Numbered from the stretch's first letter, positions 7,645 through 61,662 are shown. The stretch is DNA of 64,000 nucleotides from an uncultured Chloroflexia bacterium (GCA_963790955.1 CAWBQM010000002.1:74085-138084), one strand, 5' to 3'. Program-made: numbers and translations. Notes: generated from the sequence alone by a model not told the origin.

Positions 7645-9009
7645 TCAGATCGAGGCGCTATCCGAGGGCCGTGGCTCGAGGGGACGTGCCATCGGCGCCC
7701 CGGGCTGCACCGCGGCCGACGGTTCGGCCGCCCCGCGCAGCACGTGGTAGACCAGGATGGCGCCGATCGTGGCCGTGCCGATGCCGCCGATCGAGAAATC
7801 GCCGCCCGTCACCACGAAGTCGCCGGCACCCATCGTCAGCGCCACCGCGGCGGTGATGAGGTTGCGGCTGTGCGAGAAGTCGACGCCGTTCTCGACCCAG
7901 ATCCGGGCGCCCGTGGCGGCGATCAGGCCGAACAGCACGATCGCGAGCCCGCCGAGGACCGGCGACGGGATCGTCCCGATGAGCGCCCCGAACTTCGGGG
8001 AAAAGCCCATGGCGATCGCGACCACGGCCGCGACGACGAATACGAGTGTCGAGTAGATCTTCGTGACGGCCATGACGCCGATGTTCTCGGCGTACGTCGT
8101 GACACCGGTGCCGCCACCGCTACCGGCGACCATCGTCGCCAGGCCGTCGCCCAGGAATGCCCGTCCAAGGTACGGATCGAGGTTTCGCCCGGTCATCGCC
8201 GCGACCGCCTTGACGTGGCCCAGGTTCTCGGCCACGAGCACGATGGCGACCGGCGCGATGAGCCCGATCGAACGGGCGGTGAATGTCGGCGCCGTGAGGG
8301 TCGGCAGGCCGATCCACGCCGCGTCACCGAGCTTCGTGAAGTCGATCGGCGAGCCCCAGCCGAGCCCGTTGGCAAGGATCGCGTACACGGCGTAGCCGGC
8401 GACGCCGCCGAGCAGGATCGGCAGCCGCTTGCCTATTCCGGGGGCATAGACGGCGATGAGCGCCACCGCGACGACCGTGAGGATCCCGATCAGGACCGCG
8501 AATGAATCGGTGCCGATGTCGCTCACGGCGACGGGCGCCAGGTTCAACCCGATCGCGGCCACGACGGCGCCCGTGACGACCGGCGGCATGAGGCGCTGGA
8601 CCCAGTCGTAGCCGACGGCCATGACGACCAGACCGATCACGGCATACAGCGCTCCGGCGGCGACAATTCCGCCCAGGGCCACGGCGATGTTCGGGTTCGG
8701 GCCGCTGCCCGAGTAGCCGCTGGCGGCGATGACGACGGCGATGAACGCGAACGACGAGCCCAGGTAGCTCGGCACGCGACCGCCCACCACGACGAAGAAG
8801 ATGAGGGTGCCAATCCCGGAGAACAGGATGGCAGTGTTCGGATCGAAGCCCATGAGGATCGGCGCCAGGACGGTGGCCCCGAACATCGCGAAGATGTGCT
8901 GGACCCCGATCGCGATCGTCTGTCCCCAGGGCAGGCGCTCATCGGGAGCGATGATCCCGCCCGATTTCTCCGTCCAGTGGAATGAGCCGCTCGAGCCGCG
9001 CACGCGCAT
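7645..9009 (-). CDS. NCS2-family nucleobase (uracil/xanthine) permease
   Basis: Inner ATG 9009 is preceded by GGAGGAGGG. The protein is polytopic, with QHIFAMFGATVLAPIL and ENLGHVKAVAAMTG motifs typical of uracil-xanthine permeases. Confidence 0.9.
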   Translation of the reverse strand: MRVRGSSGSFHWTEKSGGIIAPDERLPWGQTIAIGVQHIFAMFGATVLAPILMGFDPNTAILFSGIGTLIFFVVVGGRVPSYLGSSFAFIAVVIAASGYSGSGPNPNIAVALGGIVAAGALYAVIGLVVMAVGYDWVQRLMPPVVTGAVVAAIGLNLAPVAVSDIGTDSFAVLIGILTVVAVALIAVYAPGIGKRLPILLGGVAGYAVYAILANGLGWGSPIDFTKLGDAAWIGLPTLTAPTFTARSIGLIAPVAIVLVAENLGHVKAVAAMTGRNLDPYLGRAFLGDGLATMVAGSGGGTGVTTYAENIGVMAVTKIYSTLVFVVAAVVAIAMGFSPKFGALIGTIPSPVLGGLAIVLFGLIAATGARIWVENGVDFSHSRNLITAAVALTMGAGDFVVTGGDFSIGGIGTATIGAILVYHVLRGAAEPSAAVQPGAPMARPLEPRPSDSASI

Positions 9010-51019: not shown

Positions 51020-52185
51020 CCGAATCGACCACTTCGGACGCGCGCGAAGCGGCCATCCCGGAGTCCCGCTATGCCGAGCGCCTGGCGCGGGCCCGTCAGG
51101 TCGTCCAAGAGGCGGGCCTTTCGGCGCTGCTGGTCGGCGTCGGGCCGGATCTGCGCTACCTCACCGGCTACACAGCGCTGCTGACCGAGCGGCTGACCCT
51201 GCTGGTCGTGCCCGCCGATGGTGCGTGCCGGCTCGTCGTGCCCCGCCTCGAGGCCGACCCGGCCGGCCGAGCGCCGGCGGCCCGCTCCGGCCTCGTCGAG
51301 ATCGCCCCCTGGCGCGAGACCGACGACCCGTATGCGCTCGTCGCCTCGCTCGTGGACAGCACACCGGGGGGTGTCGGCGTGTCGGACACGCTGTGGGCGA
51401 TGCACGTGCTGGCGATCCAGGGCCACCTGCCCGATCGACCTGTTCGCCTCGGCTCGTCGGTGACCCGCCGGCTGCGCATGATCAAGGACGCCAAGGAGAT
51501 CGAGTTGCTGCGCCGTGCCGCCGAAGCGGCCGACCGGGTCGTCGCCCACATCGCCGGCGGGCGGCTCGTCGGACGCTCCGAGGCCGACATTGCCCGCGAG
51601 GTCCGCGAGCGCCTCGTGGCCGAGGGCCATGACAGCGCCGAGTTCGCGATCGTCGCCTCGGGCCCCAACTCGGCCTCGCCCCACCACGACGCATCCGGTC
51701 GAGTCGTCGGCCCCGGCGATCCCATCGTTCTCGACATCGGCGGACCACTGGCCGGCTACGGGTCCGACATCACCAGGATGGTGTGGGTGACCGGGGGCAA
51801 TCCGCGTCACGAGCCTGATCTCGACTTCGTGCGCATATTCGAGGTCGTGCGTGAGGCGCAGCGCATCGCGACCGATGCCGTTCGGCCCGGGATCCGGGCC
51901 GCCGCCCTGGACCGGATGGCGCGGGACGTGATCGAGGCGGCGGGCTACGGCGAGGCCTTTCTGCACCGGCTCGGACACGGCATCGGGCTCGAGGGCCACG
52001 AGCATCCGTATCTGGTGGCCGGCGACGACACGGCGCTCGAGCGCGGCATGGCCTTCTCGATCGAGCCAGGCATCTACCTCGAGGGGCGCTTCGGCGTCCG
52101 CTTGGAGGACATCGTCGTGTGCGGGACCGACGGACCGATCGTCCTCAACCGCGCCGACCACGACCTGTACGTGGTCGACGGCTGA
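51016..52185 (+). CDS. M24-family Xaa-Pro peptidase / aminopeptidase P
   Basis: ATGA overlap. Metal ligands lie in VLDIGG..GYGSDITR, HRLGHGIGLEGHE, FSIEPG and VRLED. Confidence 0.9.
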   Translation: MTESTTSDAREAAIPESRYAERLARARQVVQEAGLSALLVGVGPDLRYLTGYTALLTERLTLLVVPADGACRLVVPRLEADPAGRAPAARSGLVEIAPWRETDDPYALVASLVDSTPGGVGVSDTLWAMHVLAIQGHLPDRPVRLGSSVTRRLRMIKDAKEIELLRRAAEAADRVVAHIAGGRLVGRSEADIAREVRERLVAEGHDSAEFAIVASGPNSASPHHDASGRVVGPGDPIVLDIGGPLAGYGSDITRMVWVTGGNPRHEPDLDFVRIFEVVREAQRIATDAVRPGIRAAALDRMARDVIEAAGYGEAFLHRLGHGIGLEGHEHPYLVAGDDTALERGMAFSIEPGIYLEGRFGVRLEDIVVCGTDGPIVLNRADHDLYVVDG

Positions 52186-52226
52186 CCGGCCGGGCCCGGC
52201 GCCAAGCGCGGTCGCCGGCCTGCGTT

Positions 52227-52940
52227 ATGATTCCTGAACATCCCGGCGATGCCGACGCCGGGCGCCCGAGAACCGTCCATGCATACCAGCTTCTCGCGAC
52301 ACACCCGCGTCGCGGACCAGATCAGCGGGGCCTCGTTGCGTCGTTCCCGCCGCCCGTTGCCGGGCTGATGGGCCGCCGCTCGCATCGTCACGGCCACCAC
52401 GGACATCGACTGGGCCGGAGCGAGTTGCCGCGCCCCGGACCGGCTCGGGAGGTGCTCGGGAACGCCGCCGGGTCCGCCCTGGTCGAGCAGGTCGTCGAGA
52501 TCCATCAGGCTGCCGTGGCCGAGGCACACGACCCCATGCCGACGCCATGGTCCGAGCCGGCCACGATCGAACGCGCAGCGGCGCACGGGACGACCGAGTC
52601 ACGACCGGGCTCGGATGCGTCCATTCCGACCCGGCCGGCTGCCGATCGCTCGGAGCGGGCAGGGGCATGCACGGCCCCACAGCTTCGGCGCTTCATCAAG
52701 AGCCGACCCTACGTGCCGATGCACGAGCTTCGGCGCAGGTTCGGGATCGACGGGCAGGACGACGACGTCACCCAGATCGACATCGACGGCCGGCGCCTCT
52801 ATGTCGGGTTGCCGCAACCCGAGGGATCGCTGCTCGGCGAGTTGCTGCGCTCGGGGGACGTGGGCTACGAGCTCTCGCACGATCCGACGAGTCCGATCGT
52901 CGTGGGCGTCTTCGCGATGCGACCCGTGCCGCGAACCTGA
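52227..52940 (+). CDS. hypothetical protein with His-rich segment (SHRHGHHGH) and a conserved-looking C-terminal domain
   Basis: High third-position GC in this frame. The C-terminal 90 aa (PQLRRFIKSRPYVPMHELRRRFGIDG..VGYELSHDPTSPIVVGVF) looks globular. The start is very uncertain (ATG 52227, 52369 or 52537). Confidence 0.4.
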   Translation: MIPEHPGDADAGRPRTVHAYQLLATHPRRGPDQRGLVASFPPPVAGLMGRRSHRHGHHGHRLGRSELPRPGPAREVLGNAAGSALVEQVVEIHQAAVAEAHDPMPTPWSEPATIERAAAHGTTESRPGSDASIPTRPAADRSERAGACTAPQLRRFIKSRPYVPMHELRRRFGIDGQDDDVTQIDIDGRRLYVGLPQPEGSLLGELLRSGDVGYELSHDPTSPIVVGVFAMRPVPRT

Positions 52941-52999
52941 GCGCAGTGCGGGCTGGCGGGAGGCTGGTCATCGGCAACGGCTCTCGCGAAGCGCGGGCG

Positions 53000-53015
53000 T
53001 GTCCTGTAGCTGACA
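53000..53015. promoter_or_regulatory. TGTC-N8-GACA palindrome (CRP/FNR-type geometry) upstream of repeat gene A
   Basis: TGTCCTGTAGCTGACA is centred about 117 nt before ATG 53125. A near-identical site, TGTCGGGCAGCTGACA, sits about 116 nt before the ATG of repeat gene B. Confidence 0.45.
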
Positions 53016-53079
53016 GGCGCGACGTCCCGCCCGCCACTGGACGCCGCCGTGACCGGGCCTGATCATGAGCCAACGTCCA

Positions 53080-53096
53080 TGTGAGGCGGGATCACA
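53080..53096. promoter_or_regulatory. TGTGA-N7-TCACA inverted repeat upstream of repeat gene A
   Basis: TGTGAGGCGGGATCACA lies 29-45 nt before ATG 53125. The half-sites are CRP-like but the spacer is one nt longer than the canonical N6. Confidence 0.35.
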
Positions 53097-53124
53097 GACA
53101 AGAGAGAGAATGGAGTAGGGCGAG

Positions 53125-53550
53125 ATGCCGAACCAACCGCGTGAGAGCGTCGCGACGCCGCGCGACGAGAGCGACGTCGAGGGCCACGGCCACGGCACGC
53201 CGCGAGCCACCGAGAGCGACGACGTCGAGGGCCACGGCCACGGCACGCCGCGAGCCACCGAGAGCGACGACGTCGAGGGCCACGGCCACGGCACGCCGCG
53301 AGCCACTGAGAGCGACGACGTCGAGGGCCACGGCCACGGCACGCCGCGAGCCACCGAGAGCGACGACGTCGAGGGCCACGGCCACGGCACGCCGCGAGCC
53401 ACCGAGAGCGACGACGTCGAGGGCCACTCGATGCTGCCGATCGACCCGTCGATGGCTCGGCACCTCGCCAACGCCCGCGAATCCGAGATCCGCCAGCACC
53501 TGAAGCGGCACGAGTTCGAAGCGGACGCGCGCCGGCCGCACAAGCGCTGA
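53125..53550 (+). CDS. acidic His-rich tandem-repeat protein A: 5.3 copies of DVEGHGHGTPRATESD
   Basis: 141 aa with GGAG 9 nt upstream. MPNQPRESV.. is followed by the repeats, then a unique basic tail MLPIDPSMARHLANARESEIRQHLKRHEFEADARRPHKR. There is no signal peptide or TM helix. Confidence 0.75.
   Translation: MPNQPRESVATPRDESDVEGHGHGTPRATESDDVEGHGHGTPRATESDDVEGHGHGTPRATESDDVEGHGHGTPRATESDDVEGHGHGTPRATESDDVEGHSMLPIDPSMARHLANARESEIRQHLKRHEFEADARRPHKR
53173..53427 (+). repeat. 48-nt in-frame tandem repeat array (5.3 copies)
   Basis: The unit is GACGTCGAGGGCCACGGCCACGGCACGCCGCGAGCCACCGAGAGCGAC. The copies are identical except for one synonymous ACC to ACT change in copy 3. Confidence 0.95.
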
Positions 53551-53595
53551 CGACACCTTCGGCCCGTCATCGGCGGGTCGAAAACCGGAGGCTTG

Positions 53596-54303
53596 ATGCC
53601 CGAAGCCGCTGACACGGACTTCGTCATCGACGTGCTTCGCCGCTCGGCGCTCTTCGGACGCGCCGAAGCGGCGAATCTGGTTGCCTGCGCCACGCAGATG
53701 CGTCGCCGGCGCTACCGGCGCAACGAGACCATCTTCCATCAGGGCGACCCGGGCGAGTCCCTGTACATCGTGGCCGAAGGTCGCGTGAAGATCGTGCTGC
53801 CGTCTCCGGAAGGTGAGGAGGCCGCGATCATCGCGACACTCGATCGCGGCGACTTCTTCGGCGAGCTCGCGCTCCTCGACGGAGCGCCGCATTCGGCCTC
53901 GGCCGTGGCCCTCGAGCCCACCGAGACGCTGGTGCTGCATCGCGATCCGTTCGAGCAGCTGGTCGAGGCCGATCCCGCACTCCGGCGAGCCCTGCTAGCC
54001 GGTCTTGCGGCCGAGCTGCGCCGGCTGACAGGCCACGTCGAGGAGCTCCATTTCCTGGACCTGCCCGGGCGGCTCGCGCGACGGCTCGTGCGAATCGCGG
54101 CCGAGACGGCACCCAAATCGCATACCGAGGTCCACCTCGACTGGCCGTATACCCAGTCGGAGCTGGCCGGCATGATCGGCGGCGCGCGCCAGTCGGTGAA
54201 CCGGCTGCTCGCCGATCTCGCCGCGCGCGATCTCATTCGCTACGAGCGCGACGTGCTCGTCATCCCCGACGTCGCGGCGCTGGAGCGCGCTGCGGAGCGG
54301 TGA
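53596..54303 (+). CDS. Crp/Fnr-family transcriptional regulator (cNMP-binding domain plus HTH)
   Basis: GGAGG lies upstream. IFHQGDPGESLYIVAEGRVKI, GDFFGELALLDG..RSASAVA, and the HTH TQSELAGMIGGARQSVNRLLADL are present. Confidence 0.9.
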   Translation: MPEAADTDFVIDVLRRSALFGRAEAANLVACATQMRRRRYRRNETIFHQGDPGESLYIVAEGRVKIVLPSPEGEEAAIIATLDRGDFFGELALLDGAPHSASAVALEPTETLVLHRDPFEQLVEADPALRRALLAGLAAELRRLTGHVEELHFLDLPGRLARRLVRIAAETAPKSHTEVHLDWPYTQSELAGMIGGARQSVNRLLADLAARDLIRYERDVLVIPDVAALERAAER

Positions 54304-55259
54304 CAGAACCGAGCGGCCGGTCGAGGCGTTCATCGCGATCGCCGCGCCGGGGGTCCGCGCGCGGCCGGCGCGACCTCGATCGCGAAGCGGACCTTTCCGA
54401 ATCGGCGCGGCAGGTGCTTGCCCGGATCGCGCTCCGGGCCGAAGCCGCTCGGCGCCTGGAGCTCGGCGCCGGTGAGGCGGTTCTGCGCTCGATCGTCGAC
54501 GCGACCGTCCGCCTGTTCGAGGCCGAGGCCGCGTCACTCGCTCTGTTCGATCCCGCGCTCAACAGACTCGTCTTCCGCGTCGCGGCCGGGGAGCAAGGTT
54601 CTGGCGTCGTCGGGCTCTCGATCGCGCCGGATCAGGGCCTCGTCGGCTACGTGTACAGCACCGGCCAGGCGCTTGCGCTGTCCGACGTCCGCAACGACGC
54701 CCGCTTCGGGCGCGCCTTCGCCGAGCAGACGCAGTACGTGCCCCGCTCGATCGTGGCGGTGCCGCTGGTCGACGAGCAGGGTGTGCTGGGCGTCCTCGAG
54801 GTCCTGGACAAGCGCTCGTCGGAGGCATTCAGCCTGCGCGACATCGAGCTCGCCTCCGTATTCGCAGGACAGGCTGCCGTCGCCATCCGCGCCAGTCGCG
54901 TCGAACGTGACACGACGCAGATCCTGCGCTCGGCCTTGGGCACGCTGTCGGCCGACGCGTCCGCCGAGACAGGTGCCACGGACGCGGAGGGGGCACAAAC
55001 CGATGGGGCGACGGCTGCCGCCCTGGACGAGCTGGTCGGCGACGCGATGCGCGCCCTCGGCACCGACGACGCGACGGGTCTGTGGCGGCTCGTGGAGGCG
55101 ATCGCGCGCGCCCGCCGAGCCGAGCCCGAGCAGCTGGACCTCGTCGCCGACCTCCTCGCTGTCCTGGCCGATCATGCCGAGCGGCGTCGGACGGGACGAA
55201 CCGACCGCGCGCGCCGCTACGCCGGCCGTACGCGCGGCACGTCCTCCGCCACGGACTGA
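54300..55259 (+). CDS. GAF-domain protein
   Basis: GTGA overlap with the crp-like stop. Core: AASLALFDPALNRLVFRVAAGEQG..GLVGYVYSTGQALALSDV..DARF..SIVAVPLVDEQGVLGVLEVLDK. Confidence 0.8.
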   Translation: MTEPSGRSRRSSRSPRRGSARGRRDLDREADLSESARQVLARIALRAEAARRLELGAGEAVLRSIVDATVRLFEAEAASLALFDPALNRLVFRVAAGEQGSGVVGLSIAPDQGLVGYVYSTGQALALSDVRNDARFGRAFAEQTQYVPRSIVAVPLVDEQGVLGVLEVLDKRSSEAFSLRDIELASVFAGQAAVAIRASRVERDTTQILRSALGTLSADASAETGATDAEGAQTDGATAAALDELVGDAMRALGTDDATGLWRLVEAIARARRAEPEQLDLVADLLAVLADHAERRRTGRTDRARRYAGRTRGTSSATD

Positions 55260-55264
55260 TCGCC

Positions 55265-56122
55265 GTGTCCGAGCTCGACCTGCCCGCCTGGAGCGAACCG
55301 TTCGTCGGGGAGCGACGCGCCGCCCTGGCACGTCGGCTACCGCTCGGTCGCATGGATCGCGAGCTCGCATGGGGCGGCGCGGACGGTTCGGGCGTCACGG
55401 TCGCGATCATCGATTCCGGGGTTGAGCGCGAGCACCCGGCCGTGGGCGGGATGCTCCGCCGAAGCATGCTCGTCGAGCTGGACGAGGAGGGCGAGGCGCG
55501 GGTGTCGGAGGATTCGGAAGCGCGTGACGTCGTCGGTCACGGGACCGCCTGCGCGGGCATCATCCACAGCCTCGCACCCGGCGCCGAGATCCTGTCGGTA
55601 CGGGTCCTCGGCCCTGACAACCGAGGCAAGGGCGCGGTATTCGCGGCGGGCCTCGAGTGGGCGATCGACGCCGGGGCAGGCGTCGTCAACCTGAGCCTGT
55701 CGTCGAAGAGCGACGCGATGTTCGGGATCTTCCATGAGCTGGCCGATGCCGCTTACTTCGCCAACGTCCTGCTCGTGTCGGCGGCCAACAACGTCCCCGG
55801 ACCCAGCTATCCATCGCTGTTCGCGGCCGTGGTGTCGGTCGCCGCGCACGATCTGCCGGATCCCGAGGCGTTCTTCTACAACCCGGCGCCGCCGGTCGAG
55901 TTCGGAGCTCGCGGCGTCGACGTCGAGGTGGCCTGGCGGAACGGTGCGCGCATGATCGCGACCGGCAACAGCTTTGCGGCGCCACACATCGCGGGCCTGG
56001 CGACGCGGATCCGCTCGAAACACCCCTCACTCACGCCGTTCGAGCTCAAGACCATCCTGGCGGCGACCGCGAGCCCGGTCGCCGAGGCGCCCGGCGAGCC
56101 GGCCGCGGTCGCCCGCGGTTGA
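55265..56122 (+). CDS. S8-family (subtilisin-like) serine peptidase, no signal peptide
   Basis: Catalytic triad boxes are VAIIDSGV (Asp), GHGTACAGII (His) and GNSFAAPHIAG (Ser). The start is GTG 55265, 5 nt after the GAF stop, or ATG 55352. Confidence 0.9.
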   Translation: MSELDLPAWSEPFVGERRAALARRLPLGRMDRELAWGGADGSGVTVAIIDSGVEREHPAVGGMLRRSMLVELDEEGEARVSEDSEARDVVGHGTACAGIIHSLAPGAEILSVRVLGPDNRGKGAVFAAGLEWAIDAGAGVVNLSLSSKSDAMFGIFHELADAAYFANVLLVSAANNVPGPSYPSLFAAVVSVAAHDLPDPEAFFYNPAPPVEFGARGVDVEVAWRNGARMIATGNSFAAPHIAGLATRIRSKHPSLTPFELKTILAATASPVAEAPGEPAAVARG

Positions 56123-56206
56123 GGAGCCCGGTCGGCCCCGCCGTGTGATGCCCGGGCCGGGCCGGCCGCGGGGAGGGTTGTGCCCGCGCACGGCGCCCGA
56201 CCGCGC

Positions 56207-56647
56207 ATGACGACGCGCGGGGCCGGGCCGTCGCTCGACGATCTGGCCAGGCGAGCGGCAGCCCTTCCGCACGCGGTCGGCCGACCGATCGTCGGCATCA
56301 CTGGACCGCCAGGTGCGGGCAAGACCAGCCTGGCGCGAGCCCTCGTGGCCGCGCTCGCGGCACATCATGTCGCCGCCGTCGCGATCCCGATGGACGGCTT
56401 CCACCTGTCCAATGCCGAGCTCGATCGGCGGGGATTGCGGCACGTCAAGGGCGCTCCCGACACGTTCGACGCCGCCATCGACCGGCACGTGCGCCATGGT
56501 CGCAGCCGCGCCGCCGCGACGGCGTGGGTCCTGCGCAGCGACGAGACGAACGCGTTGCTCATCGCACGGACCCGTGATCGGGCCCAACTGGTGATCCCGG
56601 ACCTGCCGTCCGGATTGGGATGGGATGAGGCCGCGACGGGCCCATGA
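56207..56647 (+). CDS. P-loop nucleoside/nucleotide-kinase-family protein with an apparent in-frame internal deletion (possibly non-functional)
   Basis: GITGPPGAGKTS (Walker A), PMDGFHLSN and KGAPDTFDAA run directly into RHVRHGRS..AWVLRSDETNALLIARTRDRAQLVI. This family is normally about 200 aa and has a substrate-binding and Walker B-like segment between these blocks. Confidence 0.6.
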   Translation: MTTRGAGPSLDDLARRAAALPHAVGRPIVGITGPPGAGKTSLARALVAALAAHHVAAVAIPMDGFHLSNAELDRRGLRHVKGAPDTFDAAIDRHVRHGRSRAAATAWVLRSDETNALLIARTRDRAQLVIPDLPSGLGWDEAATGP

Positions 56648-56652
56648 ACGCG

Positions 56653-56692
56653 CGATCGCCCGCGTCCCGGGCTATCCGGGGGCGGGCGATCG
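56653..56692. terminator. 11-bp perfect-stem hairpin between the convergent kinase-like gene and repeat gene B
   Basis: CGATCGCCCGC-(18 nt loop with inner CCCGG/CCGGG)-GCGGGCGATCG. No U-tract. Confidence 0.45.
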
Positions 56693-56744
56693 AGCTGCTC
56701 GGCCGGCGGATGCGGGCGACCGGCCGATGGAGGAGGCGAGTGTT

Positions 56745-57143
56745 CTATTCGCCCCGGCTCAGCGGACTCCGGGGCTGCATCCCGTGGCCTTCGACGTCGT
56801 CGTCACTCTCCACGGCGCGTGGCGTGCCGTGGCCGTGACCCTCGACGTCGTCGCTCTCCACCGCGCGTGGCGTGCCGTGGCCGTGACCCTCGACGTCGTC
56901 GCTCTCCACGGCGCGTGGCGTGCCGTGGCCGTGACCCTCGACGTCGTCGCTCTCCACCGCGCGTGGCGTGCCGTGGCCGTGACCCTCGACGTCGTCGCTC
57001 TCCACCGCGCGTGGCGTGCCGTGGCCGTGACCCTCGACGTCGTCGCTCTCCACCGCGCGTGGCGTGCCGTGGCCGTGACCCTCGACGTCGTCGTCGTTCT
57101 GCGTGGCCCGCATCATGACACCCTCACGGGGATTGTTCGGCAT
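56745..57143 (-). CDS. acidic His-rich tandem-repeat protein B: 6.5 copies of DVEGHGHGTPRAVESD
   Basis: Inner ATG 57143 has GGAGGA 8 nt upstream. The N-terminus MPNNPREGV.. parallels protein A. It has a short unique tail, GMQPRSPLSRGE. The upstream part of tracked ORF 56745..57596 is junk. Confidence 0.75.
   Translation of the reverse strand: MPNNPREGVMMRATQNDDDVEGHGHGTPRAVESDDVEGHGHGTPRAVESDDVEGHGHGTPRAVESDDVEGHGHGTPRAVESDDVEGHGHGTPRAVESDDVEGHGHGTPRAVESDDDVEGHGMQPRSPLSRGE
56784..57094 (-). repeat. 48-nt in-frame tandem repeat array (6.5 copies), inverted relative to array A
   Basis: The unit, read on the minus strand, is GACGTCGAGGGTCACGGCCACGGCACGCCACGCGCGGTGGAGAGCGAC. The only internal variation is synonymous GCG/GCC. 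Confidence 0.95.
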
Positions 57144-57251
57144 GAGACCGTCCTCCTGGAAGAGGCCGCCGGACATTCGTTTCCGCCGCACCTGTTGGGG
57201 AACGGTACCTGGATCGGCTTCCGCCCGGAAGCCCCCCCGGCACAGCTCGGC

Positions 57252-57267
57252 TGTCAGCTGCCCGACA
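57252..57267. promoter_or_regulatory. TGTC-N8-GACA palindrome upstream of repeat gene B
   Basis: The minus strand reads TGTCGGGCAGCTGACA, centred about 116 nt before ATG 57143. It shares 12 of 16 positions, including AGCTGACA, with site 53000..53015. Confidence 0.45.
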
Positions 57268-57294
57268 CCAGGCGTATCGGCGAACCGTTCCAGG

Positions 57295-59172
57295 TCAGGC
57301 CGACGCTCGCTCGATTGCGAGGTCGCTGGCCAGGCCCGATCGTCGCAGGTCGAGCAGGCGACCGCGGACGTCGGGCGACTCGCCGACCAGCTCCAGGAAG
57401 TCGGCGCCATCCAGGGCAAGGAGTCGGGCCGGTTCGAGCGCGACGACGGTGGCGTTGCGCGGTGCCGAGCGGAGCAGCCCGAGCTCGCCCACGATCTCGC
57501 CCGGCCCGATCTCGTCCACGCAAATCTTGCCGGCGGCGGCCTCTCGCTCGACCGCAAGGCGCCCGGACTCGACGACGTAGCACAGGTCGGGCGCATCGCC
57601 TTCCCGGATCACCACTTGGCCTTGCGCGAGCGCGACGATGGTCATGCGCCGGGCGGCCGACTCCAGCGCTGCGATATTGACGCCGGCGAACACCCCGAGC
57701 GCTCGGAGCAGGGCCATGCGGGCCCCAACTTCGGGCGGAAGGCGGTCGAGGCGACCGACCAGCACAGTCGTCATGACACCGACCGCCACGAGCGCGAGCG
57801 CGGCGACACCGAGCACGAGCGGCACACCGACCACTCCGGCCGCGATGGGCACGATCAGAGAGCCCGCGGCGAATGCGAGCGTCGAGAACGTTGCGAGCGA
57901 GCCCAGGGTGCGGCCGCGGATCTCGTCGGGTACAGCGCGTTGGATGAGGGTCGTGCCGAGAACCTCGACCACCAGGCTACCGACCGAGGCCACGGCGAGC
58001 GCGAGGAACGCGATGGGCAAGCTCCGCGCACCGACCGATGCGGCCAGCCCGGCGAGCCCGATCGCGAGCACGAGCGAGCCCGCCAGCAGCGGGGGAGCCG
58101 AGCGCGCCCGCAGCACGAGGACGCCCGCGATCAGCGCCCCGATGAGCCCGCCGACGCCGATCGCGGCGTTGAGCACGCCCGTGGCCTCGTCGCCGGTGCC
58201 GAGCGATTCGCTCGCGAGGACGACGGTCAGGACGCCCAGGCCGCCGAAGACCGCACTCGTGGTGCTGTCGAGCGCAGCGAGGGCGACGATCGGGCCGAGT
58301 TGCCGTGGCCTGGCGCTGGCCGCGTTACGGGGCCCTTCCGCCGTCTCCGGCGACTCGGACGCGCCCGCCTCGACGCCCGGCGTGGTGCCGATCGGCGCGA
58401 GCGTGCCGAGTGTCGCCGAGGCGCCCGGTGTACCGATCTCGCCACCCGGCTCCGTGGCCAACGCGAGCATGCCCGCCCCGCCGGCGACCGATGCCCCGGT
58501 TCCCGCCGAGGGGGCGCTCGCCGCGGCAACACTCGACTTCGGGCCCGGGCCCGGGCCCGGGCCGGGAGCGGCAGCGGTCGACGCGCGCGACGGCATGCTC
58601 CACAGCACGACAATGACGAGCGTGAACGATGCCGCATTGAGGGCGAAGGCGAGCGTCAGCCCGCTCGTGGCGATGAGTAGGCCGGCGACCGCGGGGCCCA
58701 CGATGTAGGCCAGATTGTCGAGGGTCGCCCAGGCCGAGTTGGCCGGGCCCAGCTCATGCTCGTCTCGAGCGAGCGTGGGTAGGTAGGCGCCGATCGTCGG
58801 CCCGAAGAAGGTCGAGAAGCAGGTGGCCAGGATCGCGAGCGCGACGATCGCGACGAGCGGTCCGTCGACCGCGACCAGCCAGGCCAACACGAGCATGATC
58901 ACCGCCCGCGCGACGTCGGTGGTGAGCAGCACGAAGCGGCGCTCGAAGCGGTCCGCGGCGATGCCGGCCGGTACCGAGAGGATGACGTACGGCAGGACTC
59001 GGGCCGCGCCCACGATGCCGAGCAGGACAGGGTCGCCGCTCTCGCGGGCGACGACGACGAGCAGGGCGACCAGGTACAGCCAGTCGCCGATCGAGGACAC
59101 GAACTCGCCCACGAGCAGGCGCGTCAGCGGTCCGTTGCCGAGCAGACGCCGGTACGCTGCGAGCGTGCTCAC
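57295..59172 (-). CDS. MFS transporter fused to a C-terminal cyclic-nucleotide-binding domain
   Basis: About 12 TM helices surround a long Ala/Gly/Pro central loop (APGPGPGPGP). The C-terminal domain is VIREGDAPDLCYVVESGRLAV..GEIVGELGLLRSAPRNATVVA. The GTG start overlaps the ogt stop as GTGA. Confidence 0.9.
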   Translation of the reverse strand: MSTLAAYRRLLGNGPLTRLLVGEFVSSIGDWLYLVALLVVVARESGDPVLLGIVGAARVLPYVILSVPAGIAADRFERRFVLLTTDVARAVIMLVLAWLVAVDGPLVAIVALAILATCFSTFFGPTIGAYLPTLARDEHELGPANSAWATLDNLAYIVGPAVAGLLIATSGLTLAFALNAASFTLVIVVLWSMPSRASTAAAPGPGPGPGPKSSVAAASAPSAGTGASVAGGAGMLALATEPGGEIGTPGASATLGTLAPIGTTPGVEAGASESPETAEGPRNAASARPRQLGPIVALAALDSTTSAVFGGLGVLTVVLASESLGTGDEATGVLNAAIGVGGLIGALIAGVLVLRARSAPPLLAGSLVLAIGLAGLAASVGARSLPIAFLALAVASVGSLVVEVLGTTLIQRAVPDEIRGRTLGSLATFSTLAFAAGSLIVPIAAGVVGVPLVLGVAALALVAVGVMTTVLVGRLDRLPPEVGARMALLRALGVFAGVNIAALESAARRMTIVALAQGQVVIREGDAPDLCYVVESGRLAVEREAAAGKICVDEIGPGEIVGELGLLRSAPRNATVVALEPARLLALDGADFLELVGESPDVRGRLLDLRRSGLASDLAIERASA

Positions 59173-59768
59173 GCGCTCGCGTCCAGGCCCGGGTCCCCGA
59201 GCAGGTCGCGTGCCGGGAGCGTAACGCCTTCGAGCGTCAGCAACGCCCGCTTGAGCTTCAGCTGCTCCTCGCGCGATCCATACCAGCCACCGCCATAGCC
59301 ACCGATCGTCCCGTCACCGGCGATGACGCGATGGCACGGAATGAGCAGGCCGATCGGATTGCGCCCGACCGCGCCGCCCGCAGCTCGCGCGGCGCCCGGA
59401 GCCCCAATGCGGCGGGCCAGTCGACCGTAGCTCGTGACGGCGCCGAACGGGATCGAGCGCACGCCGTCGAAGACGCGACGATCCCAGGCCGAGCATTGTG
59501 GCGGATCGAGGGCCAGGTCGAAGTCCCTGCGATGGCCGGCGAAGTACTCGCCGAGCTGCCGGGCGGCCCGCTGAAACATGATCCCAGCCGCGGACATTGG
59601 CCGCCCGTCGTCGTCCTGGCTCGGGCGCTCGCCGTCGACGGTTCCAAGCTCGCGACGCAGCGTCTCGAGCGTGGTGCGGAACTGGAGCGCGACGACCCCG
59701 ACCGAGCTCACCGCCAGGTGGACCGGGCCGAACGGCGAGGGCACGACGTCGACGACGAGCGGACGCAC
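59169..59768 (-). CDS. ogt: methylated-DNA--protein-cysteine methyltransferase
   Basis: IPFGAVTSYGRLA..GAVGRNPIGLLIPCHRVI carries the PCHR active site. The start is uncertain (GTG 59768). Confidence 0.85.
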   Translation of the reverse strand: MRPLVVDVVPSPFGPVHLAVSSVGVVALQFRTTLETLRRELGTVDGERPSQDDDGRPMSAAGIMFQRAARQLGEYFAGHRRDFDLALDPPQCSAWDRRVFDGVRSIPFGAVTSYGRLARRIGAPGAARAAGGAVGRNPIGLLIPCHRVIAGDGTIGGYGGGWYGSREEQLKLKRALLTLEGVTLPARDLLGDPGLDASA

Positions 59769-59855
59769 CCGGGCAGTGTAGGGCTCGCCACGGGCGACCG
59801 ACACACCGATGCCCCTAGCCGGACGTATCCTCGGCACACCGCAGCAGGAGCGCCC

Positions 59856-60356
59856 GTGCCCAGCCAAGCCCCGTCCCGGGTCGACGTCCCGTCCGACCCG
59901 CGCGACCTCGCCGGGGAGTTCCGTCACCGGCGCGAGGTGGAGGTCCGGCTGCGCGACACCAACGCCCTCGGCCACGTGAACAACGTCGTGTACCTGACCT
60001 ATTGCGAGCTCGCCCGGACGAGCTACTGGCGGGACGTGCTCGGGCCGGACTGGGTGCCGGGCCGGCATCCGGAACGCGGCCTCATCCTGGCCGAGAGCCG
60101 CATCGTCCACCGTTCCCCGACGTTCTTCGGCGAGAGCGTCGTCGTCGAGACGCGCACGGTCGCGATCGGGCGCTCGAGCTTCAGCCAGGAACACCGCCTG
60201 ACGGCCGGCGAGAGTGATCTCGGTCGATCCCGGTTGCTCGCAGTCGCCAGCGCCGTCCTCGTCGGCTACGACTACACGGCCAGTCGGCCTATCCCGCTGG
60301 AGCAGGATGTCGTGGCGCGCCTGGAGGCATTCGAGGGTCGGCGGCTGAGGCCGTGA
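59856..60356 (+). CDS. hotdog-fold (4HBT/YbgC-like) acyl-CoA thioesterase
   Basis: GCAGGAG lies upstream of GTG 59856. RLRDTNALGHVNNVVYLTYCELARTSYW is present. Confidence 0.75.
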   Translation: MPSQAPSRVDVPSDPRDLAGEFRHRREVEVRLRDTNALGHVNNVVYLTYCELARTSYWRDVLGPDWVPGRHPERGLILAESRIVHRSPTFFGESVVVETRTVAIGRSSFSQEHRLTAGESDLGRSRLLAVASAVLVGYDYTASRPIPLEQDVVARLEAFEGRRLRP

Positions 60357-60389
60357 GCCAGACTGCGACGAGTCGGTGGCGTCGTCCCA

Positions 60390-61662
60390 TCAGTCGACGA
60401 CGCGCCGGAAGATCGTGACGGCGTTCTGCCCGCCGAAGCCGAAGCCGTTGACCATGACCGTGTCGACCTTGGCCGAGCGCGCGACGCGCGGCACGTAGTC
60501 GAGGTCGCACTCCGGCAGGTCGGGATTCTCGAGATTCGCGGTGGGGCTGATCACGCCGTCCCGGATGCCGCCGATCGCCGCCAGGGCGCTCGCGATGCCG
60601 GCCGCGCCGATCAGGTGGCCGAGCATCGACTTCGGCGAGCTCACGGCGACGCGGCCGGCATGCTCGCCGAAGGTTTGCTTGATGGCCCGCGTCTCGGTCG
60701 TGTCATTGAGCGAGGTCGACGTGCCGTGGGCCACGATCCAGTCGACCTCGTCCGGTGCCACGCCGGAGTTGCGCAAGGCCATCGTCATCGCCCGAGCCGC
60801 CCCACGCCCGGTCGGCTCGGGCGCGCTGATGTGATATGCGTCGGCCGTGAGCCCGCCACCGAGCACCTCGGCGAGTGGCGTCGCACCGCGATCGCGGGCG
60901 TGGGCGAGCGAATTCCACGACGACCACGCCACCGCCCTCGCCCAGCACGAACCCGTCCCGGTCTCGATCGAACGGCCGCGACGCGCGCCCGGGATCGTCG
61001 TTGCGTCGGCTCAGAGCGCCCATGTTGCCCAGCGCAGCGACAGCCATGGGCAGGACCGGTGCCTCGGACCCGCCGGCGAGCACCACGTCGCATTCGCCCG
61101 TCGCGATCAGGCGCAGGGCGTCCTGGAACGCGATGACCGAGGTCGCGCACGCAGCGACCTGGGTCATCGCGGGGCCCGTGAGCCCGTATGCCATGGACAG
61201 CATGCACGCGCCCATCGAGCCCGACAGCGCCGGGATGGCGAATGCCGACACGAAACGCGGGCCCTTCTGGTCGTGGGTATGGGTCCCGTCGATGATCTCC
61301 TCGATGCCGCCGCCGCCCGTGTTGACGACGACCCCGACGCGATCGCGCTCGTCCTGGCTCATCGCCTCGAAGTCGATCCCCGAGTCGGTGACGGCCTCGC
61401 GGCCGGCCGCCATCGCGAAGTGGATGAAGCGGCTCATGCGGCGCGCCATCTTGGGGTCCATGGCGACGGTCGGGTCGAAGCCGACGACCTCGGCCGCGAT
61501 CTGGACCTCGAAGCCGGCCGGATCGAAGCTCTGGATGCGACGCGTGCCGGTCACGCCTGCCACCAGGTTGCGCCAGTACGTCGGGAAGTCGTTGCCGATC
61601 GGCATGACGGCCCCCAGGCCGGTCACGACGGCGCGACGCGCGGGATCAGGACTGGGGGGCAC
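60390..61662 (-). pseudogene. second beta-ketoacyl-ACP synthase II paralogue, split by a single-nt frameshift
   Basis: The N-terminal ORF (VVTGLGAV.., active-site AACATS, ..GFVLGEGGGVVVVE) and the C-terminal ORF (LAHARDRGA..ADAYHISAPEP..AHGTSTSLND..GHLIGAAG..GFGFGGQN) overlap. The frames switch at the GAATTC near 60910..60915. Confidence 0.8.

Follow-up and report, generated by a model that had tools for sequence, protein, structure and literature searches.

A Crp–GAF–subtilase cassette of Limnocylindria-type Chloroflexota linked to a new family of DDVEGH-repeat proteins

Introduction

A stretch of 64,000 nucleotides (nt) from an uncultured Chloroflexia bacterium (GCA_963790955.1, CAWBQM010000002.1:74085-138084), referred to as the window, contains two small genes, A and B, that encode tandemly repeated proteins. 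They lie around genes for a Crp/Fnr-family regulator, a GAF-domain protein and an S8 subtilase, next to a transporter of the major facilitator superfamily (MFS) with a cyclic-nucleotide (cNMP)-binding domain. The locus raises the question of what the repeat proteins are and what they do beside a regulator and a protease. The original prediction, made from the sequence, offered two answers: multi-core peptide precursors cut by the subtilase, or metal-buffering proteins expressed under cyclic-nucleotide control.

The observation holds, far above what chance would produce. Both genes are genuine and encode intrinsically disordered proteins of a new family, which comprises two paralogue types. They belong to a conserved, self-contained regulatory-proteolytic cassette of Limnocylindria-type Chloroflexota. 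The central protein family and the combination of genes are new, and the function proposed for them is read from sequence and gene context.

Organisation of the cassette

The cassette features in the window are as follows, with lengths in amino acids (aa).

52999-53015, plus strand: operator of A, GTGTCCTGTAGCTGACA, 126 nt before the start of A; core TGTC-N8-GACA, Cmr/CooA-type of the CRP family
53125-53550, plus strand: gene A, A-type DDVEGH-repeat protein, 141 aa, six motifs and a conserved helical basic tail
53172-53427, plus strand: 48-nt tandem array within A, 5.3 copies, 99% matches (Tandem Repeats Finder)
53596-54303, plus strand: Crp/Fnr-family regulator, cNMP_binding and HTH_Crp_2 (Pfam)
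54300-55259, plus strand: GAF-domain protein with a C-terminal helical extension (Pfam GAF)
55265-56122, plus strand: cytoplasmic S8A subtilase, 285 aa (Pfam and NCBIfam)
56745-57143, minus strand: gene B, B-type DDVEGH-repeat protein, 132 aa, seven motifs, short conserved C-terminus RSP(S/L)SRGE
56798-57093, minus strand: 48-nt tandem array within B, 6.2 copies, 98% matches (Tandem Repeats Finder)
57252-57268, minus strand: operator of B, GTGTCGGGCAGCTGACA, 125 nt before the start of B, in the intergenic region between the MFS gene and B
57295-59172, minus strand: MFS_1/MFS_3 transporter (DHA3/EntS-like) with a C-terminal cNMP-binding domain (Pfam and NCBIfam)

The analysis of open reading frames (ORFs) agrees with the original prediction on the coordinates, strands and lengths of A and B, the latter counted from its MPNNPRE start. 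A GGAG-type ribosome-binding site precedes each gene by 8-10 nt. The predicted 5.3 repeat copies in A were recovered, while B has 6.2 copies and not 6.5. A gap of 45 nt separates A from the ATG of the Crp gene (53596). The GAF gene starts at 54300 and overlaps the end of the Crp gene via GTGA, and the S8 gene starts at 55265, 5 nt past the end of the GAF gene. B has the same direction as the MFS gene and the ogt gene before it, and begins 151 nt past the MFS stop codon. The spacings from A to S8 were as predicted, and so was the coupling of ogt to the MFS gene, where the overlap is 4 nt. The domain assignments of the Crp, GAF, S8, kinase, MFS-cNMP and ogt products are likewise supported by Pfam and NCBIfam. 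A scan of positions 52800-57400 found neither intrinsic terminators nor consensus sigma-70 promoters, and no Rfam RNA family is present within 52000-60500.

The DDVEGH-repeat protein family

Proteins A and B are strongly hydrophilic, with grand averages of hydropathy (GRAVY) of -1.44 and -1.26, and a charge-hydropathy plot classes the two as disordered. Neither has a hydrophobic segment. The best 19-residue Kyte-Doolittle window stays below zero, in line with the predicted absence of a signal peptide or transmembrane helix. The motif [DE][VTAI]EGH has 13 occurrences in the six-frame translation of the window, every one inside A or B.

A search with A gave 110 homologues of 77-241 aa, all unnamed or 'hypothetical' and without Pfam domains. 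They come from metagenomes or metagenome-assembled genomes (MAGs) of Chloroflexota, Limnocylindrales and 'Dormibacteraeota'. Among 1.84 billion cluster representatives, a profile search retrieved 385 family members (E <= 1e-3), all short. The family signature is D-D-V-E-G-H-[GSN]-hydrophobic, present in 1-9 copies with lineage-specific spacers. Each position, given the others, is conserved at 82% (D), 96% (D), 90% (V, otherwise T or A), 96% (E), 98.5% (G) and 99% (H). The His is followed by a small residue (G, S or N) and then a hydrophobic one, and the motif is preceded by [RK][RK]-A-[AT]. The spacers vary in sequence as well as in length, with motif-to-motif spacing modes of 15-17, 25-28 and 35-37 residues. 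The family contains no Cys, almost no aromatic residues, and 10.6% Gly.

The two paralogue types differ in their C-termini and in their place. A-type proteins have a conserved tail of ~45 residues directly after the last motif, with the pattern ..MLPID..AR.LA.ARE.(D/E)I(R/Q)R.L.RH..E.EARRPHKR; the tail of A itself reads SMLPID..AR.LA.ARE.EIR..L.RH..E.DARRPHKR. B-type proteins end 8-15 residues past the last motif, often with (L)RSPSSRGE. Orthologues that share the ending of B occur in loci L003, L005 and L009 and in many metagenome loci. The A-type gene lies 5' of crp, and the B-type gene 3' of the MFS gene.

A, B and other family members gave nothing meaningful in Pfam (E up to 10), NCBIfam, PADLOC or PDB sequence searches. 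A full-text search of the accessible literature returned nothing relevant on the DVEGH motif, the cassette, combinations of precursor, subtilisin and MFS, or Limnocylindria together with cAMP. The original prediction recognised no characterised system in this locus, and these searches also leave the system without a match.

Two of its proposals about the repeat unit fare less well. Cleavage after TPR is unlikely, because TPR sits in the lineage-specific spacer, outside the conserved D-D-V-E-G-H-[GSN]-hydrophobic stretch. A His pair does recur at regular spacing in the window's genome, where each unit has two His, but only a single His per motif is conserved across the family. This weakens the metal-buffer reading.

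Selection on the repeat units

Units inside one gene differ by 0-1 nt, which indicates recent expansion or homogenisation. The comparison of A and B units of the same genome gives 15 synonymous to 1 non-synonymous difference overall. In the window the ratio is 4:1 per 16-codon unit, in L015 it is 9:0 over 43 codons (P ~6e-6), and in L013 it is 2:0. Sharing of spacer 4-mers averages 0.17 within genomes and 0.01 between genomes. Judged from these counts, the whole unit, including its spacer, is under purifying selection within a lineage and yet differs among lineages. The constancy within a lineage argues against neutral low-complexity sequence and for a function of the unit itself. It is the pattern expected if a released unit itself matters.

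Linkage across genomes and metagenomes

A genome scan anchored on the A tail gave 12 loci in species-representative genomes, all of them Chloroflexota MAGs. Crp, GAF and S8 genes stand beside the A homologue in 12/12 (identities of 62-75%, 54-68% and 63-80%, respectively), so the co-occurrence with S8, GAF and Crp that the original prediction proposed to survey is found. The same loci include the MFS-cNMP gene in seven cases, ogt in five and the kinase gene of the window in none.

A second search, anchored on S8 in metagenomes, went from 600 pattern matches to 409 that encode relatives and to 80 loci that were kept. The counts below refer only to loci with enough flanking sequence.

GAF directly 5' of S8: 46/46 evaluable loci
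Crp 5' of GAF: 31/31
A-type gene: 16/19
B-type gene after S8: 35/57
MFS-cNMP gene: 13/24
At least one DDVEGH gene: 14/14

The three loci without an A-type gene all carry a B-type gene. The same cassette is present around distant family members (L013-L015), and its order may change. In L015, A is divergent from crp and the flanks differ. L011 has the order MFS-Crp-DDVEGH-GAF-S8, with the MFS gene on the same strand as the rest. In L018, a tail-less member of 80 aa heads a tight DDVEGH-GAF-S8-MFS operon with unrelated flanks. Conservation, the intact but rearranged cassettes and the shared operator described below tie A and B to Crp-GAF-S8 and often to MFS-cNMP. The hosts are soil and sediment Chloroflexota.

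Two loci depart from this arrangement. L016 and L017 contain tail-less, many-repeat DDVEGH genes (1512-2057 and 8001-8492) that have no S8, GAF or Crp neighbours.

Two apparent gene fusions were set aside as Rosetta-stone evidence. The MFS-cNMP and B-type fusion P0458 (539 aa) has a frameshift-like sequence, and the ogt-MFS fusion in L014 comes from a contig in which crp is also truncated. Both are probable assembly artefacts.

The shared operator and the Crp-like regulator

GTGTC-N7-TGACA has exactly two perfect matches in the window, 52999-53015 (plus strand) and 57252-57268 (minus strand), the operators of A and B. A set of 686 kb, made up of the window and all fetched loci but L016 and L017 (96 of 98), contains 64 exact TGTC-N8-GACA sites. 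Thirty-nine of these lie within the 300-nt stretches 5' of DDVEGH genes, which make up 3% of the sequence. The expected number is 1.9, an enrichment of ~20-fold (P ~6e-43). The two orphan genes also have such a palindrome 75-90 nt before their starts (L016, 1422-1437; L017, 7912-7927), so the pairing of operator and repeat protein is wider than the cassette.

The palindrome agrees with the Cmr consensus of Mycobacterium tuberculosis, TGTCA-N6-(C/T)GACA, which is nearly identical to that of CooA (PMC4705688). The agreement includes 4C and 13G, the positions that set Cmr-type sites apart from CRP sites (PMC5758884). The canonical CRP box TGTGA-N6-TCACA was absent, at up to one mismatch, from 30 A-type and 33 B-type upstream regions. 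A second palindrome before A, TGTGA-N7-TCACA (TGTGAGGCGGGATCACA; 53081-53097), stands 3' of the operator and 5' of the ribosome-binding site; it is one base too long for a CRP box, is found in no other locus and was rejected. Both repeat-protein genes are thus operator-bearing and predicted targets of a Cmr/CooA-type site.

Promoters aligned on the operator show a -10-like element (TAnnnn or CTGGnC) 19-21 nt 3' of it. Such spacing is the geometry of class II CRP-dependent promoters, and this suggests activation.

A further recurrent element, (G)CAAGATGAC(C) or GATCATGAG, is seen ~55-66 nt before the ATG of A-type genes, in the presumed 5' untranslated region. It is present at 53059-53072 in the window and in L010, L036, L038 and L068, and has no Rfam match.

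The regulator itself matches cNMP_binding (1e-28) and HTH_Crp_2 (3e-15) in Pfam, and its closest solved relative is M. tuberculosis CRP (Rv3676; E = 3e-35). The recognition helix reads R-Q-[ST]-V-N-[RK] in 61/61 orthologues (R-Q-S-V-N-R in the window), and every one of them has Gln at the position of the base-reading Glu181 of CRP. The palindrome is probably bound by this Crp-like protein of the cassette. The phosphate-binding Arg is His in the window (GAPHSASAVA), as in 32/56 orthologues, and Arg in the other 24/56. Within one orthologous group, this split suggests either a change of ligand or a polymorphism. Cyclic-nucleotide control, as originally predicted, is plausible but not secure for the regulator.

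The subtilase, the GAF protein and the transporter

The S8 protein contains only Peptidase_S8 in Pfam and has neither a signal peptide nor a hydrophobic segment. Its triad D50/H92/S236 and N175/N176 are intact and the oxyanion Asn is kept, in support of the predicted cytoplasmic subtilase. It aligns with mature subtilisin BPN' from residue 38 onwards, which leaves an N-terminal extension of ~18 residues and no I9 prodomain. The sequence LPAWSEPF at the N-terminus is invariant in alignments. A search gave at least 7,994 matches at E <= 1e-20, and the best 120 of these are 71-85% identical and 270-322 aa long. The AlphaFold2 (AF2) model has a pTM of 0.85, with a pLDDT of 35 for residues 1-10, and its matches in Foldseek and the PDB are generic subtilisins, including BPN'.

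In the alignment, the cleft positions S101, Q103, P129 and Y104 of BPN' correspond to R120, K122, K148 and G123, all invariant or nearly so. This basic rim would suit an acidic substrate. Subtilisins generally prefer a hydrophobic residue at P4 and a small one at P2, a pattern that V-E-G-H, read as P4-P1, would fit.

The loop of the catalytic His, DVVGHGT (residues 88-94; 55526-55546), is identical to the repeat motif DVEGHG at 5/6 positions. The likeness could be coincidence, mimicry or a sign of evolutionary origin.

Homologues of the GAF protein are 260-300 aa long, so the true start may lie 3' of 54300. The GAF core is modelled with a pLDDT of ~90 (AF2). By sequence and fold, it is closest to the cAMP/cGMP-binding GAF domains of cAMP-bound Lcd1 (5W10), PDE2A, PDE10A and CyaB2. 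The NKFDE-type motif, as judged by eye, is only partly kept (DK-x5-F-x3-DI).

The MFS protein matches MFS_1 (4e-34) and MFS_3 (2.5e-23) in Pfam. In NCBIfam the top matches are TIGR00900, EntS, Tap, Tet(V) and Mef(A), none of which reaches its equivalog cutoff; they place the protein among exporters of the EntS, Tap, Tet(V) and Mef type. The cNMP domain of the transporter keeps the canonical Arg in 38/38 orthologous domains, and in L018 the gene is in one operon with DDVEGH-GAF-S8.

Proposed mechanism

The favoured reading, held tentatively and at rather less than even confidence, is that the regulator switches on A and B, that the GAF-partnered subtilase cuts them at the motif, and that the MFS protein may export the products. 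The Crp-like protein would bind the palindrome and activate A, together with crp-gaf-S8, and B. The GAF protein, whose gene is translationally coupled to that of the protease, would make protease activity dependent on a small ligand, probably a cyclic nucleotide. The subtilase would then cut A and B at every motif, with V-E-G-H as P4-P1 and with the acidic P5/P6 residues opposite the invariant basic cleft residues R120, K122 and K148. Conservation of the motif reaches P1' and P2' of the proposed cut site. The predicted release in the window's genome is ~11 16-mers, GHGTPRA[T/V]ESDDVEGH, with a basic helix of 40 residues and a 12-mer. The computed monoisotopic masses of the 16-mers are 1663.72 Da (A) and 1661.74 Da (B). 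Where present, the DHA3-type MFS-cNMP transporter may export the peptides, whose role might be that of a signal, a metal ligand or simply a degradation product.

Several points weigh against this proposal. The case for cleavage and its position, for the part played by the GAF protein and for export is inferential. His at P1 is no classical preference of subtilisins. AF2 places both the N-terminal extension of S8 and the conserved helical C-terminal region of the GAF protein with low confidence. The ligand of the regulator is uncertain because of the His in place of its phosphate-binding Arg. About half of the evaluable loci lack an MFS gene next to the cassette and ~40% lack B, and the neighbourhood encodes no receptor or uptake system for a peptide product and no enzyme to modify one. 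The orphan DDVEGH genes of L016 and L017, which have the same operator and no neighbouring S8 or GAF gene, also indicate that a protease-independent function of the repeat proteins may exist.

A bolder version of the proposal, unlikely as it stands, is a bacterial 'pro-hormone' system. Here a cytoplasmic subtilase, restrained by a ligand-sensing GAF partner, would cut poly-precursors at the invariant DDVEGH and yield many copies of a lineage-specific peptide of 10-30 residues ending in ...DDVEGH, to be exported through the cyclic-nucleotide-gated MFS protein as a strain-specific signal or metal-binding peptide. Each stage, from transcription through processing to export, would be under the control of a small-ligand sensor from the same cassette.

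Alternative explanations

The alternative that survives best, doubtful though it is, describes A and B as stress or metal-handling hydrophilins. They would be abundant disordered protectants or buffers (Zn, Ni, Cu, Fe, Ca), induced by the Crp-like protein under starvation or desiccation. The subtilase-GAF pair would remove them once conditions change, as the GPR protease removes small acid-soluble spore proteins at spore germination, or would act on other targets. Hydrophilins are defined by more than 6% Gly and high hydrophilicity, and the Gly content, a GRAVY of about -1.3 to -1.4, 0% Cys and the predicted disorder of the family all fit. General stress proteins with tandem motifs (GsiB, KGG-repeat) are a known bacterial design and offer a precedent. 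The soil and sediment hosts and the operator-bearing genes that lack an adjacent S8 or GAF gene also favour this explanation. A motif with one His and 3-4 carboxylates is a plausible metal site, and the unit of the window has two His; a single His per motif is, however, all that the family conserves, and neither a metal transporter nor a metalloregulator accompanies the cassette consistently (L013 alone has HMA and cupredoxin genes). A protectant needs neither an 8-residue motif conserved at 82-99% per position nor lineage-specific spacers kept identical between paralogues by purifying selection. The strict coupling of S8 to GAF (46/46) and Crp (31/31), and the DDVEGH gene within the GAF-S8-MFS operon of L018, are also left unexplained.

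It is distinctly unlikely that A and B are multivalent pseudo-substrate regulators, whose motifs would dock on the subtilase or the GAF protein, inhibit or scaffold it and set a threshold for a protease that has other targets. Repeated short linear motifs in a disordered chain, conserved on either side of the putative scissile bond, are compatible with such a role, as is the resemblance of DVEGHG to the catalytic-His loop DVVGHG. A protease without an I9 prodomain needs some other restraint, and the position of A ahead of crp-gaf-S8 gives the operon a stoichiometric look. However, a copy number of 1-9 that changes fast would be odd for a tuned inhibitor, the transporter is left without a role, and the selection on the spacers is not explained, since S8 is nearly invariant across those lineages.

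A locus for ribosomally synthesised and post-translationally modified peptides (RiPPs), of the cyanobactin or another multi-core type, in which S8 would excise modified cores, is very improbable. The resemblance is formal and lies in the repeats, whose flanks are conserved and whose inserts vary, and in the presence of S8 and MFS genes. No version of the cassette encodes a YcaO, radical SAM, LanM, ATP-grasp, prenyltransferase or similar enzyme. The S8 scores for the PatA/PatG and QhpE models also fall short of the cutoffs given below, the precursors have no leader peptide, no Cys and almost no aromatic residues, and the units are long and highly charged.

Mere synteny of A and B as fast-evolving low-complexity ORFs, with no functional unit, has very little probability: all loci do come from one phylum and the flanking POR, CBS, M24 peptidase and KAS genes are partly syntenic too, but membership survives inversion, reordering and wholly different flanks (L011, L015, L018), the operator is enriched specifically 5' of DDVEGH genes, the 15:1 ratio indicates selection on the protein, and the C-terminal tails are conserved.

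Neighbouring genes

Two further genes accompany the cassette in the window.

56180-56647, plus strand: truncated P-loop nucleoside/nucleotide kinase fragment, PRK09270-type
59169-60194, minus strand: ogt, O6-alkylguanine-DNA alkyltransferase, PCHR site present (Pfam and NCBIfam)

The kinase ORF covers only positions 5-90 of the 217-position PRK09270 model. A homologue was found by tblastn in 0/92 loci (12 genome and 80 metagenome loci), and none is present in the gene calls of L013-L015 and L018. The original prediction had made it the last gene of the operon; on these counts it was rejected as a member of the cassette. It looks like a truncated gene remnant and a local, lineage-specific insertion between S8 and B.

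The ogt gene adjoins the MFS gene in L005, L008, L009, L012-L015 and many metagenome loci, which makes the linkage frequent, not universal. It was also noted at 3093-3809 in L015. In L045, L046, L089 and L097, ogt stays beside a cassette that has no MFS gene. The 755-aa ORF called in L014 (12273-14540) joins ogt and MFS and, as noted above, may be an artefact.

A small conserved protein (..APQLRRFIKSRPYVPMHELRRRF..DVGYELSHDP..) forms the ~90-aa C-terminus of the ORF at 52119-52940 (52600-52940 in the window) and has no Pfam match. It is encoded directly 5' of A in at least five other loci, and directly 5' of crp in L027, which has no A-type gene. On the other side, the beta-ketoacyl synthase gene at 60390-61662 (minus strand) is split into overlapping ORFs in different frames (60703-61662 and 60390-60932). 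A frameshift or a sequencing error is possible, as the gene is intact in related loci (~420 aa in L014).

Significance

The cassette belongs to a large, uncultured and globally abundant lineage of soil and sediment. The 409 confirmed metagenome matches and the best 120 of the at least 7,994 S8 matches are close relatives. Its central proteins form a family without annotation, structure or literature. If the processing model is true, the cassette would represent an unmodified, ribosomal, multi-copy bacterial peptide system that uses a cytoplasmic subtilase, and peptide signals or metallophores could then arise by a route not described before. Proteolysis and transport under a second messenger would gain a new example as well, and protease engineering would profit from having a natural substrate motif of a minimal intracellular subtilisin. 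Even if the proteins are hydrophilins, the regulator-operator pair, the strict protease-GAF coupling and the spacer selection remain testable entry points.

Comparison with known systems

Kexin-type convertase precursors: By analogy only, precursors of kexin-type S8 convertases resemble A and B in their tandem short units, conserved cleavage signal, dedicated subtilase and lineage-variable copy number. Yeast alpha-factor with Kex2, and pro-TRH with the prohormone convertases, are processed in the secretory pathway, at dibasic sites, by kexin enzymes with a P-domain. In contrast, the proteins of the cassette are cytoplasmic and their conserved site, DDVEGH, is acidic; the proposed cleavage would fall to a minimal S8A subtilisin, which has a GAF protein as its partner.

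Cyanobactins: The original prediction compared the locus with PatE and the PatA/PatG proteases. The likeness holds in form, as conserved recognition flanks, variable inserts and an S8 gene in the cluster give a multi-core appearance. Membership does not hold: S8 scores 23.9 bits against a curated cutoff of 421 for TIGR03895 (PatA/PatG), and there is no YcaO heterocyclase, macrocyclase domain or DUF, leader, or Cys/Ser/Thr-rich core. Both A and B begin directly with a repeat-like unit, their spacers consist of 8-30 hydrophilic residues, and the domains of the cassette are only cNMP/HTH, GAF, S8, MFS and ogt.

Intracellular subtilisin proteases (ISPs): The cassette S8 is like these in having an S8A domain without a signal peptide or classical prodomain, and a short conserved N-terminal extension. 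In Bacillus and Planococcus ISPs, the pro-peptide motif [LVI]-[IFLV]-P-[YFH] (LIPY/F) blocks the active site (PMC6220982). LPAWSEPF does not fit this motif, and neither sequence nor fold brings the protein nearer to ISPs than to secreted subtilisins. ISPs act as general proteases of stationary phase, whereas the cassette S8 shares its locus with genes for a GAF protein, a Crp-type regulator and dedicated repeat proteins.

Other S8 and defence systems: Type VII mycosin was rejected, with 121 bits for TIGR03921 against a cutoff of 278.75 and no hydrophobic segment in S8. QhpE was rejected at 101 bits for NF049966 against a cutoff of 165, and qhpC and the radical-SAM qhpD were not found as neighbours. 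No known anti-phage defence system was matched either. PADLOC gave only generic domain-level matches (the cNMP domain to Pycsar effectors, a generic subtilase) and none for A, B or GAF.

Hydrophilins: GsiB and the KGG-repeat YciG family are small, Gly-rich, hydrophilic and disordered, with tandem repeats and a global stress-type regulator, in line with A and B. The DDVEGH proteins differ in having no sequence or Pfam relation to them, an acidic-His motif instead of KGG, and a fixed physical link of their genes to those for a protease, a GAF protein and a transporter.

Calpastatin and PDE6 gamma: Calpastatin with calpain, and PDE6 gamma with the GAF domains of PDE6, also use disordered linear motifs that control an intracellular hydrolase. 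They are eukaryotic and show no homology to the cassette, and serve as an analogy only for the pseudo-substrate alternative. PDE6 structures are among the fold matches of the GAF protein.

Cmr and CooA: The 16-bp palindrome TGTCN-N6-NGACA with 4C/13G, the combination of cNMP_binding and HTH_Crp_2, and a residue other than Glu at the base-discriminating position of the recognition helix are shared with the branch of Cmr (Rv1675c) and CooA. The regulator differs from Cmr in being closest to Rv3676 and in having Gln, not Pro, at the discriminating position. The local regulon comprises the two repeat-protein genes.

Tests against cyanobactins, mycosin, QhpE, canonical ISPs, the CRP regulon and defence systems gave no assignment, and the system is therefore rated as undescribed. 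The positive assignments are to the domain families and to the Cmr/CooA-type operator only.

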